From Trichodesmium erythraeum IMS101 (lineage in GTDB: Bacteria > Cyanobacteriota > Cyanobacteriia > Cyanobacteriales > Microcoleaceae), in assembly GCF_000014265.1 (NCBI RefSeq), contig NC_008312.1, positions 4,680,001 to 4,712,000 on the forward strand: DNA of 32,000 nt. The letters are read 5' to 3'. The notes under the pieces were generated by a model. The model was given only the letters and a program-made list of their open reading frames with translations. It ran no database searches and was not told the DNA's origin. The first letter of the stretch is position 1. The number at the start of each line of letters is the position of its first letter. Made by a program: the position numbers and the translations under genes. Shown in pieces: positions 1,378 to 6,351 of the stretch.

Positions 1378-1710
1378 GTATTTTGACTAACTTAAGACTT
1401 GAAGCTATTGCTCCCAAATAAATAATTAAAAATTTTTCTTCACTATTGCTTATATCAAGAAGTTTAATATATACTGAACTCTCAGTTTTAATTTTAGTCT
1501 TGAGGGTTTACTTCTGATTACTATAAAAGTTAGTATTAAAAATGATTGAAAATTAATTGGGTATTTTTACTAACTCAAGACTTAAAGCTATTGGTAACCC
1601 AATAATTAAAAAAATTTCTCAACTATTGCATAGATGAAGAAATTTAATATATACTAACTATCAACTTCAATTAATAGGAAGTTATTAAAAATAAGTCTAG
1701 TTCAACTTGG
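1378..1710 (+). repeat. Tandem duplication of the region upstream of the small ORF (copy 1 about 1378-1560, copy 2 about 1561-1710)
   Basis: Both copies read GTATTTT(G/T)ACTAAC(T/C)(T/C)AAGACTT(G/A)AAGCTATTG ... ACTATTGC(T/A)T ... AA(G/A)TTTAATATATACT ... AAGTTA(G)TATTAAAAAT ... TTGG in the same order. Copy 2 lacks about 33 nt that copy 1 has. Confidence 0.7.
1626..1655 (+). promoter_or_regulatory. Putative sigma70-type promoter for the small ORF (TTGCAT ... TATACT). An equivalent TTGCTT ... TATACT is at 1446-1475 in repeat copy 1
   Basis: -35-like TTGCAT (1626-1631) and -10-like TATACT (1650-1655), or the overlapping TATATA, with 16-18 nt spacing. The same arrangement is conserved in both tandem copies. 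It lies about 65 nt upstream of the ATG at 1721. Confidence 0.3.
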
Positions 1711-1720
1711 AGATATTAGT

Positions 1721-1894
1721 ATGAGTATGTCAAAAAAAATTGATGTTCAGCCAGTTCGGTCTAGTAAAATTCAGGTAGAGGTAAAAGATATTCTACAAAA
1801 TTCACTAGGAAAAAACTCACAAACAGGATTAAATTTTGACGCAGATGGTGGCGATCGTCACTTTGACTCAGATGGTGGTGATCGTCATCACTAA
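1721..1894 (+). CDS. Small 57-aa peptide, MSMSKKIDVQPVRSSKIQVEVKDILQNSLGKNSQTGLNFDADGGDRHFDSDGGDRHH (candidate RiPP-type precursor). Not in the supplied ORF track because it is under 60 aa
   Basis: ATG at 1721 is preceded by GGAG (1709-1712). The ORF is locally GC-richer than the flanking AT-rich spacer. The C-terminus is a 27-nt direct repeat (1835-1861 and 1862-1888) encoding FDADGGDRH and FDSDGGDRH. Two of the three nucleotide differences between repeats are synonymous (GGC/GGT, CAC/CAT). Confidence 0.5.
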   Translation: MSMSKKIDVQPVRSSKIQVEVKDILQNSLGKNSQTGLNFDADGGDRHFDSDGGDRHH

Positions 1895-2775
1895 GAGTTC
1901 AATATTTAAGTATTTGAATGTTTGTTTTAGATGCTTAGGGGGTTAAGAGTTACCTATCATTAGTATCTCTAGCCATGTTAGTCTGAACATGACAAATAAA
2001 AAAAATATTATGGTAAAAACTTTCCCCTTTTATATCTAAATATGTATATATCAAATATTTTTGAGCGTTTTTTACATGCAATAATAGATAATTTTATATA
2101 ATTCAGAGAATAAGCGTTGAAAAAAAACTATTTAACATTTAACTTAAGAGATTAATTAAGATATGTAAATGTAATAGATTGTAAGGAATTTTATTTAAGC
2201 ACCTAAATAAAAAAAGTAACCTTCCCTAATTTTATGTAAGCCTTACATGAGAAGGAATTCATCTAAAAAAGTGTATGATTAATCTTGTATTCTTACTTGA
2301 TTTTACCTGTTCCTAATAAAGCTTTGAAATATAAGTGTTTATTCTTTTTAGATAGTATTTATCAAATATATAAAGTGCATAAATATTCTATTTTAGGTAA
2401 TAGATAACAGGACAAGTAGAGAAGAGTAAAATAATATTATACAGGGGATTCTATCTTTGTGAGGTAAACTCTAGGGCAAGAAATATTTAATTATTAATAT
2501 ATATACTTCATATACTTAGAATATACTGTATCATTAATATCAGAATATCTATATACAAGAAAACTATTATTTAAGATAAGTAAATATTAAGTTTAAAAAA
2601 TTAAGAATTCCTAAATAAACCCATATATCAATGAATTAAGATTTAGTTGAGTTCAAATGATATGATAGACAAAGTAAAAATCAGCTTTGACTAATCTATG
2701 ATGTGCTAGTAAAAATCCTTAACTAAACTTAATAAGACCATAAACTTCAAAAATTAATAGAAAAAATTCTTAATT

Positions 2776-3933
2776 ATGTCGTATCTAACACATCTAATAC
2801 AACCATTAAAGCAAGAAGAATTTTTAGAAAACAACTGGACTAAGAAAGCGATCGCTATCTCCAATAAAGGAGAGAAAGATTTTACAGACCTATTTTCATG
2901 GGAAAAACTTAACTACCTACTAAACTTTCATCAAATAAAATATCCCGATGTGCGACTTGCATTTGATGGAAAAGTTCTGGAGGAAAAAGAAAATAGAAAT
3001 TTTACTCAATGGTGCGAAAAAGGAGCAACCTTAATTCTAGATCAAATTCATAGAAGGATTCCAGAAGTTGCTATATTTACTTCAAAACTCAGCTACGAAT
3101 TAGGATACCCAACTCAAGTCAATGCTTATTGTTCTTGGTCTAGTAAAAAAGGATTTTCTCCTCACTACGACACTCACGATGTATTTATTTTGCAGGTAGA
3201 AGGAAATAAACAATGGTATGTGTATAATGACACCTTCAAATATCCATTGCCAAACCAAAAATCATCTTCTTTTACACCACCTGAAAAAGAAGCATATTTG
3301 AGTTGTATTTTACATCCAGGAGATGTACTTTATATACCTCGTGGACACTGGCATTATGCAGTGACAAAAGAGGAACCATCTATTCATCTTACTTTAGGTA
3401 TTCACTCTTCAACAGGTGTGGATTTATTGGAATGGTTAATTGGTCAATTACAATACAGAGAAGAATGGAGAACAAGTCTAGCGTTAAGAATAGATGATAC
3501 TTCTTTTAATGTTAGTGTAGAAAATTTAATTAAAGACTTAAAAGAGTATATAAATAATCACAATATTAGCGAAGAATATAATAATTACTTGGATGGTTTA
3601 GCAAAACCTTTTGAGCAGTATAATTTACCTTATCAAGCTGGATTTCATATTTTTCATAGGGATATCGATACTAAATTCAAAGTGTCTCAGTTTCAACGTT
3701 TAAAAATTTCCAAAATGGCTGATGATGATGGATATAAAATTTTAGTTTCTGGTAAAGAGGTATCTATTCGAGGAGTACCAGAATATTTAGTGAAAAATTT
3801 ATTTAGCCGAGAAACATTTACTGGAAAAGATATCATAAATTTATTACCTGACTATGACTGGGAAATAGATATTATGCCCATGTTATCAAAGCTAGTTAAT
3901 GAAAGAGTTATTTTTGTAGAATCAGGGCTGTAA
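2776..3933 (+). CDS. JmjC / cupin-4 family Fe(II)- and 2-oxoglutarate-dependent oxygenase (ribosomal-oxygenase YcfD/RoxA-like fold)
   Basis: 385-aa ORF. It has an HxD motif (H130-Y-D132 in SPHYDTHDVFILQVEGNKQW) and a distal His in YIPRGHWHYA about 62 residues later. That is the facial-triad spacing and context typical of cupin_4/JmjC ribosomal oxygenases. A winged-helix-like C-terminal extension follows. Confidence 0.8.
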   Translation: MSYLTHLIQPLKQEEFLENNWTKKAIAISNKGEKDFTDLFSWEKLNYLLNFHQIKYPDVRLAFDGKVLEEKENRNFTQWCEKGATLILDQIHRRIPEVAIFTSKLSYELGYPTQVNAYCSWSSKKGFSPHYDTHDVFILQVEGNKQWYVYNDTFKYPLPNQKSSSFTPPEKEAYLSCILHPGDVLYIPRGHWHYAVTKEEPSIHLTLGIHSSTGVDLLEWLIGQLQYREEWRTSLALRIDDTSFNVSVENLIKDLKEYINNHNISEEYNNYLDGLAKPFEQYNLPYQAGFHIFHRDIDTKFKVSQFQRLKISKMADDDGYKILVSGKEVSIRGVPEYLVKNLFSRETFTGKDIINLLPDYDWEIDIMPMLSKLVNERVIFVESGL

Positions 3934-4201: not shown

Positions 4202-5209
4202 ATGAATAAGTTTTTTTGTTCTAGCGCTTGCCGAGAAGCAGATGAAGACATTATTGGAAGTGGTACGAATTATTCAGTTTATGTATTGATAGAATGTCCT
4301 TACCCTTGGAAACATAATGCTTTCGAGTCTCGTTTTTTACCAAAAAACTTAGAGATGTTGATGGCAAAAGTGAAAAGGGATAAATTGTCTCTCAGATTTT
4401 TACTGATTACTCAAAATCAAAATTATAGGCAAAATAACAGAAAGATTTTAATTTATGAAAAAAATAAATCTTCATTTATCAATAGTTATAAAAAATATGA
4501 GTTTGACGTAGATCATCCTGAAAAAATAGCTCCAATTATTCAAAAATACTTAGCAGGAGATAATTTAGATACTAACACTCAAAATCCTCAAATAAGAGAT
4601 CTATTAGTTTGTACTCATGGTAGTCACGATAAGTGTTGTGCTAAATATGGTAATCCGTTTTATGCGGAAGCTAAAAAAACTATTTCTGAATTGGGTTTAA
4701 AAAATACAAGAATTTGGAAAACAAGTCACTTTGGTGGTCATAGGTTTGCACCTACTATGATTAGCTTTCCTGATGGTAGATATTATGGATTACTTAATCG
4801 AGAATCTTTTCAAACAATTTTGCTACAAGCCGGGAATATAAAATTATTAAGCCAAGTTTATCGAGGTTGGAGTATTTTACCAACTTCTATTCAAGTGTTG
4901 GAAAGAGAACTTATCTTCCGCCACGGTTGGGAATGGTTTGAGTATAAAATTAATCTTTTACATCTGGATATTAATTTCGATAAAACATTAGTTCAAACTC
5001 AATTAGCTGTGCTTAAACCAGATGGTTATCAATATATTTGTCAAGCTAAATTAGTTAAAGATGAAAGTAAAACTATCTATATTAAAGGATCTTGTGATGC
5101 ATCTCACGAGTCCGAATTTATAAAGTATGCTGTCAGTAATCTTAGCTTCATAATTGAGAAGAAAACTTCTGAAAAAGTGTTAATAAGTTCTCATACAAAG
5201 GTTAGTTGA
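4202..5209 (+). CDS. Sucrase/ferredoxin-like (Suc_Fer-like) thioredoxin-fold protein, Apd1/Aim32-type bis-His [2Fe-2S] candidate
   Basis: GGAG (4191-4194) lies 7 nt before the ATG. The N-terminus has GT..YVLIECPYPW, typical of the family. It has C137-x8-C146 (CTHGSHDKCC) and H176-FGG-H180 (HxGGH), which is the Cys2His2 ligand pattern described for Apd1/Aim32. Confidence 0.75.
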   Translation: MNKFFCSSACREADEDIIGSGTNYSVYVLIECPYPWKHNAFESRFLPKNLEMLMAKVKRDKLSLRFLLITQNQNYRQNNRKILIYEKNKSSFINSYKKYEFDVDHPEKIAPIIQKYLAGDNLDTNTQNPQIRDLLVCTHGSHDKCCAKYGNPFYAEAKKTISELGLKNTRIWKTSHFGGHRFAPTMISFPDGRYYGLLNRESFQTILLQAGNIKLLSQVYRGWSILPTSIQVLERELIFRHGWEWFEYKINLLHLDINFDKTLVQTQLAVLKPDGYQYICQAKLVKDESKTIYIKGSCDASHESEFIKYAVSNLSFIIEKKTSEKVLISSHTKVS

Positions 5210-5402
5210 AAACATGAATTGATTTGGTATTTCTCAAAACTAAAATTGCTGACTAGTATCTTTAATACCTATTATTTGATAAATTTATAATCATTCACAA
5301 AAGAGACTATTATCAAAAATTTTAGTTACTAATTTTCTCAAGTTTTTTTTGAATAAAAAGCTTTACCTATAAATTCTTAGGATAAAGTAAGTTAAGGAGT
5401 AT

Positions 5403-5811
5403 ATGATTGAACCTTTAGGAGCTAAAGTCCTCAATCTATCTAAATGCTCTCCTGATTTTAACCCTATTGAATTATGGTGGTTACAACTAAAGTCTTTTAT
5501 AAGCAGTTTTTATCCCACTACAACAGAAATGGTTGATACGGTCATTTCTGTTGCATTTTAGTTAAGGGTACCTTGTCAAAAAATATGTCAAAAACATCAT
5601 CAAACTCTTATTTAGTAAAGGTTTTACATGTAATCAACTTGTTCCATGACACATGACATATTCAGCTTTAATCCTTTTTTAGCTATAGCTTTGTATTTCC
5701 CTCGCTCCTACTAGCAACTACAGGTATTTTCTCGGTAAAAAATGTCAAAGTACCATTAATATTCTGCATTTAAAAAACTTGTTTATTAAGTGCTGTTATT
5801 GTAACTCATAA
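5403..5811 (+). pseudogene. IS630-family (Tc1/mariner-like DDE) transposase C-terminal remnant, interrupted
   Basis: 5403-5561 translates to ...SKCSPDFNPIELWWLQLKSFI... (the YSPDLNPIE..W..LK motif around the catalytic E/D). 5758-5811 translates to NILHLKNLFIKCCYCNS*, the typical cyanobacterial IS630 C-terminal tail. There is no N-terminal or DDE core, and the two pieces are in different frames. Confidence 0.65.
5562..5759. mobile_element. MITE-like ~198-bp insertion with imperfect terminal inverted repeats, splitting the IS630 remnant
   Basis: The left end TTAAGGGTACCTTGTCA (5562-5578) matches the reverse complement of the right end TTAATGGTACTTTGACA (5743-5759) at 14 of 17 positions. The interior is non-coding. 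It sits exactly between the two transposase-homologous pieces. Confidence 0.4.
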
Positions 5812-5892
5812 CAATAAGAAGTGGTGTATAAATTTAAAATATATTAGTTGTTTGATTAGGCAAATTGAAGATTTTTTTTATTAAAGATAAAT

Positions 5893-6351
5893 CTATAAAT
5901 TCTGAACATCAGGTAAATTAAAGAGCATAAATTGGTGCGGTATTCCTAAAAAATTAAGTTGTTGACCAGTGCTTATAAAACCTATTTTTTCATAAAACTT
6001 AGATGCACTCAAACGAGACATTACTCTCAAAGATTTTAATTGTTTTTCTTTGGCAATTTCAATGATTTTTTGAATTAAAGCTGTGCCTACTCCCTGAGAT
6101 TGAAATTTAGGTAAAACAGCAACATATGAAATACTTCCTAGTTCTGTAGATAATTGTCGCAGTCTAGCCGAACCAATAATTTGTTCCTCATAAACAGCAA
6201 TAAAATGTAGAGAAGAATCATCATCGTCAGACTCATCTTTTTCTGTTCCTCTTTCCATATCTATCGGTTTTCTTAAAACTACCCAACGTTGATAATACAT
6301 ATTTTCTTTTTCTTGTTTGTTTTGAATTCGGCTAATCTTAAACTTTAACAT
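5893..6351 (-). CDS. GNAT-family N-acetyltransferase
   Basis: 152-aa ORF with acetyl-CoA-binding motif A (VLPKFQSQGVGTALIQKIIEIAKE) followed by FYEKIGF. Confidence 0.85.
   Translation of the reverse strand: MLKFKISRIQNKQEKENMYYQRWVVLRKPIDMERGTEKDESDDDDSSLHFIAVYEEQIIGSARLRQLSTELGSISYVAVLPKFQSQGVGTALIQKIIEIAKEKQLKSLRVMSRLSASKFYEKIGFISTGQQLNFLGIPHQFMLFNLPDVQNL

Follow-up and report, generated by a model that had tools for sequence, protein, structure and literature searches.

A conserved small acidic peptide gene paired with a ribosomal-oxygenase-type JmjC gene in Trichodesmium and other filamentous cyanobacteria

A 32,000-nucleotide stretch of the Trichodesmium erythraeum IMS101 genome (contig NC_008312.1, positions 4,680,001 to 4,712,000; hereafter the window, in which position 1 is the first letter) carries a short open reading frame (ORF) at 1721-1894 which ends in a tandem acidic repeat and lies upstream of genes for a JmjC oxygenase, a thioredoxin-like ferredoxin and an acetyltransferase. 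Its homologues and their shared gene order show that this ORF is a genuine small gene, conserved among filamentous cyanobacteria. We describe the peptide family, the gene module to which it belongs and the evidence that the peptide may be a dedicated substrate of the downstream oxygenase.

The peptide gene and its family

The following features make up the gene:
1709 to 1712, plus strand: Shine-Dalgarno sequence GGAG, 8 nt before the ATG at 1721
1721 to 1894, plus strand: peptide gene, 57 amino acids, or 55 from the ATG at 1727; putative precursor or substrate peptide
1763 to 1792, plus strand: leader motif SKIQVEVKDI, residues 15-24
1832 to 1858, plus strand: unit 1, NFDADGGDR
1859 to 1885, plus strand: unit 2, HFDSDGGDR; HH and the stop codon come next (1886-1894)

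The ORF translates as MSMSKKIDVQPVRSSKIQVEVKDILQNSLGKNSQTGLNFDADGGDRHFDSDGGDRHH. An earlier sequence-only reading of this DNA had described the ORF, the spacing of its GGAG and its position in a GC-richer island, and all of these are present, with a GC content of 0.37 in the ORF vs 0.23 in each flank. The GC content at the three codon positions (0.57/0.33/0.21) is coding-like. The same reading had reported back-to-back FDADGGDRH and FDSDGGDRH copies with mostly synonymous differences. Tandem Repeats Finder recovers them at 1835-1887 as a repeat of 27-nt period (2.0 copies, 92% matches), and a comparison of the two 27-nt units agrees with the earlier count: three positions distinguish them, two being synonymous (GGC/GGT and CAC/CAT) and one exchanging Ala for Ser (GCA/TCA).

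The in-frame second ATG at 1727 stems from a 6-nt ATGAGT duplication (window 1721-1729) confined to this genome. Orthologues open with MSK, and most orthologous loci keep a GGAGA before the start. Public annotations differ in the start codon they use: the product is a "hypothetical protein" both in RefSeq (55 amino acids, WP_196797054.1) and in GenBank (57 amino acids, e.g. MBS9770561.1). The length of the ORF is in itself not significant: 391 of 2000 shuffles of 1200-2775 (20%) yield an ATG-initiated ORF of at least 57 amino acids. Because length alone is within chance, the reality of the gene rests on its homologues and on synteny, both of which are strong.

Searching with the protein gave 17 close homologues, 55-92 amino acids long, from Trichodesmium, Okeania and other cyanobacteria, and another 27 small proteins of 41-75 amino acids came from a profile search across 1.84 billion cluster representatives. 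In total, about 87 distinct homologous peptides were collected, from Trichodesmium, Okeania, Microcoleus, Scytonema, Moorena, Leptolyngbya and others. Differences in length among the homologues correspond to whole 9-codon units. The sequence-only reading had suggested looking for relatives which vary in unit number and keep the same neighbours; such relatives exist, with 1, 2 or 3 units. A second 55-amino-acid gene in a further locus (L003), considered as a possible relative, proved unrelated.

The family has a simple anatomy. The N-terminus is variable across the 87 distinct peptides and is followed by the most conserved part of the family, a near-invariant leader motif, [RK]-x-S-K-I-Q-[VI]-E-[VI]-K-[ED]-[IL], whose alternating hydrophobic and polar residues are β-strand-like. 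A spacer of varying sequence and nearly fixed length (17-18 residues in 73 of 78 peptides) separates this motif from the first D-x-D-G-x-D. The tail is built from one to three copies of a 9-residue unit, N-[FTV]-D-[ASG]-D-G-[GS]-D-[RLV], in which D3, D5 and D8 are invariant (119/119 units) and G6 nearly so (116/119). Position 1 is Asn in 91 of the 119 units, His in 11 and Asp in 3.

Two units are present in 27 of the 87 peptides (Scytonema, Brasilonema, Symploca, Caldora and some Trichodesmium and Okeania) and three in 8 (other Okeania, Dapis), while 11 have degenerate tails; the remaining 41 have a single unit and mostly terminate in SNE or TNE. The residue at position 4 is uniform among the units of any one gene (all Ala, all Ser or all Gly), a pattern that speaks for concerted evolution or a recent duplication. 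Only the Trichodesmium/Okeania lineage has the Phe, Arg and His seen in the Trichodesmium unit, and D-x-D-G-x-D is what is invariant family-wide. On the comparison of homologues, the tandem copy in Trichodesmium is a lineage-specific expansion.

A conserved module and its upstream region

The genes downstream of the peptide gene in the window are:
2776 to 3933, plus strand: ribosomal-oxygenase-type JmjC (PF08007) Fe(II)/2-oxoglutarate (2OG) oxygenase, 385 amino acids; putative modifying enzyme
3655 to 3930, plus strand: C-terminal domain of the JmjC protein, residues ~294-385, modelled with a predicted local distance difference test score (pLDDT) of 87.7; resembles a RiPP recognition element (RRE; RiPP, a peptide synthesized ribosomally and modified post-translationally) with an E-value of only 0.1-1
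4202 to 5209, plus strand: Suc_Fer-like thioredoxin-like ferredoxin with a CX8C...HX3H bis-His [2Fe-2S] motif
5893 to 6351, minus strand: GNAT acetyltransferase, convergent with the Suc_Fer-like gene; module member in most genera

We fetched 80 genomic loci from the alignment of JmjC homologues and ran a hidden Markov model of the peptide on all of their stop-to-stop ORFs. Clade-1 loci were counted if the JmjC protein was at least 48% identical and enough upstream DNA was available, which left 58 loci. In 57 of them the model matches a plus-strand ORF, located upstream of the JmjC gene at a distance of 8-1500 nt. The peptide is absent from the sole exception, a locus from a Rhizonema metagenome-assembled genome (MAG) with ample flanking sequence (L052, 2300-5923), and the 1.4 kb between its JmjC gene and the contig end yielded neither a Suc_Fer-like nor a GNAT gene. 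This locus is possibly a decaying module in a lichen symbiont.

The gene order is the same across loci: peptide, JmjC_2, Suc_Fer-like and then the convergent GNAT, whose 3' end usually overlaps the 3' end of the Suc_Fer-like gene in other genera. GNAT is missing from the deepest-branching members, and the Suc_Fer-like gene from one Rivularia MAG. As far as gene content and order can define it, the core module is thus peptide, JmjC and Suc_Fer-like, usually with GNAT. The outer flanks vary by genus: DctQM and GUN4 in Trichodesmium and Okeania, a Na+/H+ exchanger in one relative, and methyltransferases, permeases or a sensor kinase in the remaining genera. In the window, the interval between the Suc_Fer-like and GNAT genes (5210-5892) holds a fragment of a DDE_3 (IS630-type) transposase (ORF 5403-5561), which looks like an insertion scar since the 3' ends of the two genes overlap in most other genera.

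A TldD/PmbA pair adjoins the module, downstream of GNAT, only in Microcoleus/Tychonema (L015, L017, L020, L026, L031, L032, L036, L040, L047 and L085). It was considered as the missing protease and rejected because it is adjacent solely in these lineages. The pair may either serve these lineages as a processing protease of their own or simply be syntenic.

The spacer between the peptide and JmjC genes measures 640-1500 nt in Trichodesmium, Okeania and close relatives (880 nt here) vs 8-400 nt elsewhere. In the window (1895-2775) and its equivalents (L001, L008, L012) this spacer is very AT-rich and contains no ORF and no Rfam match. The region on the other side of the peptide gene has three features on the plus strand:
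1601 to 1655, plus strand: conserved element AATAATTAAAAA..TTTCTCAACTATTGCAT..N17..TATACT, a putative promoter/operator with a -10-like TATACT at 1650-1655
1421 to 1475, plus strand: extra copy of the promoter-like element, 85% identical (2 matches in the window, 0 expected)
1663 to 1683, plus strand: hairpin AACTTC-N9-GAAGTT in the 5' untranslated region (5'-UTR), 6 pairs, with one compensatory change from UA to CG in 4 of 11 sequences

The arrangement AAATAATTAAAAA..TTTCTCAACTATTGCAT..N17..TATACT, about 70-120 nt before the gene, is near-invariant in 11 aligned loci of the Trichodesmium/Okeania/Dapis type, each of which also has CAACTATTGCAT once, about 100 nt before the start. A scan with consensus promoter and terminator models detected no terminator, and promoter-like sites were less numerous than in shuffles; the TTGCAT-N17-TATACT element falls narrowly short of its thresholds. 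A transcription start site near 1660, as the sequence-only reading had supposed, is consistent with the TATACT at 1650-1655. In this genome only, a tandem duplication of ~180 nt (1378-1475 vs 1561-1655, 75-85% identity) has doubled the element, with the second copy 180 nt upstream. Relatives carry only one, and T. erythraeum may thus use two start sites or possess a decoy operator.

Other genera have a related TCAACTAnTTGC..TTATTGACTTC element. There, TCAACTAnTTGC stands directly upstream of a TTGACT -35 box, about 100-140 nt before the peptide start (L022, L026-L030, L041, L050 and others), and GGGTG..TAC recurs before the Shine-Dalgarno sequence. The 5'-UTR hairpins of these genera are much longer, for example a 21-bp stem in L039. 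Folding of the 5'-UTRs at 42 orthologous loci gave structures of greater stability than those of shuffled sequences, with a mean z of -2.0, and of only -0.4 for the window itself. RNAalifold found no consensus structure across 23 diverse 5'-UTRs, and an Rfam scan of 1150-2850 at E <= 1 returned only a chance match to mir-155. The recurrence of TCAACTAnTTGC and GGGTG..TAC, together with the long hairpins, points to a common transcription-factor site and to an RNA element, and the conserved upstream sequences support a peptide gene which is independently transcribed and probably regulated.

The neighbouring enzymes and sister systems

The JmjC protein, 100% identical to a protein of T. erythraeum 21-75, matches PF08007 with E = 1.4e-28 (99.4 bits, cut-off 22). 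Its nearest solved structures by sequence are NO66 (2e-17), YxbC, MINA53 and YcfD. The AlphaFold model (pLDDT 78) aligns over its full length and all three domains with NO66, MINA53 and YcfD, and then with YxbC and FIH. The architecture (JmjC domain, helical/dimerisation domain and C-terminal winged-helix-like domain) is that of a ribosomal oxygenase. The iron ligands H130, D132 and H193 are invariant in 52 homologues, as is K145, which aligns with the 2OG-binding Lys355 of NO66. When modelled alone, the C-terminal domain consists of four strands and three helices, with short strands between helices 1 and 2 and after the last helix. The top-ranking PDB entries that Foldseek matches to it are TbiB1 with leader, ThcOx, McbBCD, TruD/LynD, PqqD and the PbtF RRE, all at a merely suggestive E of 0.1-1. 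A 2025 survey describes RRE-like folds fused to PF08007 and bacterial JmjC homologues in RiPP-like contexts (PMC12710340).

The Suc_Fer-like domain scores 114 bits (cut-off 34.9), and C-x-H-G-x-H-D-x-C-C and H-x-G-G-H are present in 59 of 59 Suc_Fer-like orthologues. The spacing CX8C...HX3H is the bis-His [2Fe-2S] motif of Aim32/Apd1 (PMC8482512), thioredoxin-like ferredoxins with which the window protein shares it; the protein also has a C-terminal extension of ~110 residues. A search with the Suc_Fer-like protein against PDB sequences found no relative, and we found no report in the literature tying the Suc_Fer-like/Apd1 family to peptide modification or to JmjC enzymes. The acetyltransferase was considered as RimI and, at 38 bits vs a cut-off of 86, is assigned to GNAT only generically.

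A paralogous JmjC clade (~40% identity, L061-L084) has no Suc_Fer-like or GNAT gene and does have small ORFs upstream of JmjC (for example L074 5379-5774, L068 5341-5778, L061 5294-5710, L076 5489-5830 and L065 180-449). These encode a S-x-I-[EQ]-V-E-V-V-[DN]-L strand and, in many cases, a Sec-type signal peptide, and their tails are repetitive and Asn/Asp-rich: (NS)n, NFDQRR x4, DYDRGQ x3 and DxNQ x4. The paralogous clade looks like a sister system with secreted substrates, to go by the signal peptides and strand motif. Four variants of the peptide, as well as the clade-2 precursors, gave no family match in Pfam or NCBIfam. In Streptomyces pinistramenti, a 46-amino-acid ORF, MAKIPAAPKSEVHAGRQPKRIGFSVETVKTAQVKSVPNLEVDQKDV (L082, 5771-5908), lies just upstream of a JmjC homologue of 39% identity. 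It has a similar strand-like motif, and the peptide-JmjC pairing may therefore extend beyond cyanobacteria. This locus was also considered as a biphenomycin-like cluster, which its surrounding genes do not fit.

A dedicated substrate and the alternatives to it

We infer, with a confidence only a little above even, that the small acidic peptide is the dedicated, cis-encoded substrate of the downstream JmjC oxygenase in a RiPP-like system. This is because the peptide combines a conserved strand-like leader, a fixed ruler and a repeated acidic core with an adjacent hydroxylase that has an RRE-like domain. As in RiPP precursors, the N-terminal leader is conserved and the tail varies both in sequence and in unit number, with tandem copies that differ among orthologues as they do in multi-core precursors. 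The gene is adjacent to that of a putative modifying enzyme in all but one of the 58 usable clade-1 loci while the outer flanks are unrelated, and the fixed 17-18-residue distance between leader and first unit favours a docking site.

In the mechanism we propose, the leader strand SKIQVEVKDI would dock on the RRE-like C-terminal domain of the JmjC enzyme, and the spacer would bring the N-x-D-x-D-G-x-D-x unit or units to the Fe(II)/2OG active site. One side chain per unit would be hydroxylated, by analogy with FIH, NO66/MINA53 and YcfD: most likely Asn or Asp, and possibly His where it occupies position 1. Of these relatives, YcfD acts on Arg, NO66 and MINA53 on His, and FIH on Asn, Asp and His. 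Within the unit, position 1 (Asn, in some units His or Asp) and the invariant Asp residues are the candidate sites. An Asx target is supported by the Asn/Asp-rich repetitive tails of the paralogous-clade precursors. The Suc_Fer-like protein, with its bis-His [2Fe-2S] motif, would donate or remove electrons, and may rescue the iron centre or perform a second redox step. GNATs occur in other RiPP pathways, and by speculative analogy the GNAT here might acetylate the product. The duplicated unit in Trichodesmium would provide two modification sites per molecule.

Several observations weigh against this proposal or its multi-core form. The RRE matches of the C-terminal domain model are weak (E 0.1-1, template modelling score 0.55-0.65), and the C-terminal domain of the YcfD-like ribosomal oxygenase 4csw matches the model equally well or better. 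Because ordinary ribosomal oxygenases match too, the RRE-like fold is a family trait and is no proof of leader binding. The conserved module contains neither the leader protease nor the exporter or transporter of a RiPP cluster. The 9-residue units are contiguous, with no cleavage or recognition sequences flanking the cores, and a single unit is the commonest form (41/87 distinct peptides), which is not what a classical multi-core RiPP would look like. Co-transcription with JmjC is not implied in the Trichodesmium/Okeania group, where the two genes are 640-1500 nt apart and the peptide gene has its own apparent promoter. The pN/pS ratios (nonsynonymous to synonymous polymorphism) speak for a real gene, and at 0.3-0.5 (leader of the Trichodesmium/Okeania group, 0.52; whole gene of the Microcoleus group, 0.31) they indicate a constraint which is only moderate. 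Finally, the peptides of Trichodesmium MAG_R02 and MAG_R04 have degenerate tails, LNFASDGASDGSDRHH and LDFDGDGDSDNSHHYA (L005 4056-4208 and L006 2293-2445). As both loci have kept an intact leader and JmjC gene (the latter about 90% identical), the decay of the tails shows that the core is evolving fast in this genus.

These points shape what the product is likely to be. The sequence-only reading had seen the layout of a multi-core RiPP precursor. The leader, the variable copy number and the JmjC neighbour agree with that layout; the abutting units, the lack of a protease or exporter and the prevalence of single units do not. With these three points, the decayed tails and the distance from JmjC, the whole modified peptide may be the end product: a small acidic peptide or protein which carries modifications and plausibly binds metal is more likely than excised cores. 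The earlier suggestion that an Asp/His-rich tail binds metal is, as far as it relies on His, not general to the family, because His is lineage-specific; the acidic residues may bind metal.

A more specific form of the substrate proposal, which we think quite improbable, is that the module makes a ribosomal metallophore for Fe(III) or Ca2+, in which JmjC converts an Asp or Asn of each unit to β-hydroxy-Asx. The result would be a hydroxy-carboxylate chelator, and unit duplication in Trichodesmium and Okeania would raise its denticity. β-Hydroxy-Asp is a chelating group in many marine non-ribosomal siderophores; we know of no siderophore pathway identified in Trichodesmium.

Known systems offer precedents for parts of the proposed pathway. 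The window enzyme shares its JmjC fold, HxD...H motif, Lys and three-domain layout with the ribosomal oxygenases (E. coli YcfD/RoxA, human NO66 and MINA53; JmjC_2/Cupin_4) and with B. subtilis YxbC. The known ribosomal oxygenases act on ribosomal proteins whose genes lie elsewhere, hydroxylating an Arg (uL16) or a His (uL2 or uL15). Unlike them, the window enzyme is encoded beside a dedicated peptide gene, a [2Fe-2S] protein and a GNAT, and the adjacent dedicated peptide suggests a non-ribosomal substrate. The closest precedents for the reaction itself are BipG, a JmjC ornithine hydroxylase of the biphenomycin RiPP precursor (PMC12707348), and CzlI, a JmjC Phe hydroxylase of the curacozole RiPP precursor (PMC11575548), Fe(II)/2OG enzymes which act on a ribosomal precursor in a leader- or flank-dependent manner. 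BipG and CzlI perform a tailoring step in large clusters, which include a multinuclear non-haem iron-dependent oxidase (MNIO) and radical S-adenosylmethionine enzyme or a YcaO/cyclodehydratase, a protease and a transporter, whereas the window JmjC is the only obvious peptide-modifying enzyme of its module; the precursor families are unrelated.

Among multi-core RiPPs, the precursors of cyanobactins (PatE-type) and some of those of microviridins likewise consist of a leader and tandem cores in variable copy number. In cyanobactins, protease recognition sequences stand on either side of each core, and the clusters encode the proteases. The family described here differs in its abutting units, in having no conserved protease and in that one unit is the commonest form. 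Bufferins (Leprevost et al. 2024) are reportedly widespread RiPP metallophores in whose biosynthesis an MNIO (DUF692) acts on Cys. They resemble the present system in their broad, housekeeping-like distribution and in pairing a small precursor with an iron oxidase, and may do so in their metal-handling product; the paralogous-clade precursors have Sec-type signal peptides as well. They differ in that the peptide here has no Cys and is paired with a JmjC enzyme rather than an MNIO.

The unit itself also recalls Ca2+-binding loops, and a first alternative, which we regard as rather unlikely, is that the peptide is a small acidic protein binding Ca2+ or another metal without modification through an EF-hand-like DxDxDG loop, and that the neighbouring genes are related to it without modifying it. 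The family's N-x-D-x-D-G corresponds to loop positions 1-6, where the pattern D/N-x-D-x-D-G fits 116-119 of the 119 units; 33 of the 87 peptides terminate in a Glu at loop position 12, and repeats would add binding sites. Loop position 8, however, is the invariant Asp of the unit, vs a hydrophobic residue in EF-hands, and the Glu at position 12 is absent from the window's peptide. A canonical EF-hand was therefore rejected: positions 1-6 agree, but the hydrophobic position 8 and Glu12 do not. Unlike EF-hand and epidermal growth factor (EGF) modules, moreover, the peptide has no helix-loop-helix or EGF scaffold. The RTX nonapeptide (GGxGxDxUx) was rejected as well: it shares the period of 9, but G-G-D-R-N-F-D-A-D misfits at positions 4 and 6 and there are only 1-3 units. 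Unmodified metal binding would also leave the conserved leader strand, the fixed spacing and the near-obligate pairing with a hydroxylase unexplained. A Ca2+-binding loop and a hydroxylase can go together: AspH β-hydroxylates Asp and Asn in Ca2+-binding EGF domains, and 2OG oxygenases act on Asx in Ca2+-binding modules.

It is likewise improbable, and to a similar degree, that the peptide is no biosynthetic precursor and instead regulates the JmjC oxygenase or serves it as a pseudo-substrate, for example as inhibitor, as adaptor or as a hydroxylation switch which senses O2, Fe or 2OG in the manner of FIH/HIF. The tight genetic pairing without protease or exporter genes would fit such a role, as would the conserved promoter/operator and structured 5'-UTR of the peptide gene and the regulatory roles in which ribosomal-oxygenase and FIH relatives act on proteins. 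Against it, there is no evident regulatory output domain or partner, and the recurrent expansion of units in several lineages suits the dosage of a product or of modification sites better than a switch.

Far less probable is an upstream ORF or attenuator whose translation controls the JmjC operon and whose product is irrelevant. The ORF is short, on the same strand and upstream of the operon, and the 5'-UTR is structured in many genera. But the amino-acid sequence is kept across many filamentous genera in the presence of synonymous changes, the distance to JmjC in the Trichodesmium/Okeania group is 640-1500 nt, and the consensus scan found no terminator or attenuator. That the ORF arose by chance across a tandem repeat of non-coding DNA, which the yield of shuffled sequences might have allowed, is effectively refuted by 87 distinct homologous peptides whose frame, start context and stop are conserved, by the codon-position GC content and by the mostly synonymous differences between repeat copies.

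Leader-guided modification by the JmjC enzyme, the reading we prefer, is of a known kind, peptide modification by a 2OG oxygenase; what is new is the enzyme set and the precursor family. Our literature search found no description of the peptide family or the module, with the proviso that overlap with 2025 work on RiPP macrocyclisation by 2OG dioxygenases is not excluded. A distribution this broad and housekeeping-like, together with a conserved promoter/operator, points to a role in physiology more than to a strain-specific antibiotic; candidate roles are metal handling and signalling within filaments.

If the peptide is indeed the substrate, the module would be an undescribed peptide-modification system of 3-4 genes, present in many filamentous cyanobacteria including Trichodesmium, an N2-fixer of global importance. 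Bacterial homologues of ribosomal oxygenases would gain a non-ribosomal, genetically linked substrate, which makes their specificity directly testable, and the poorly understood Suc_Fer-like/Apd1 ferredoxins would be tied to a concrete pathway. Were the product a metallophore, the module would represent a new RiPP class, built on a ribosomal-oxygenase-type hydroxylase with a bis-His [2Fe-2S] partner, and Trichodesmium would gain a genetically encoded iron-binding molecule.

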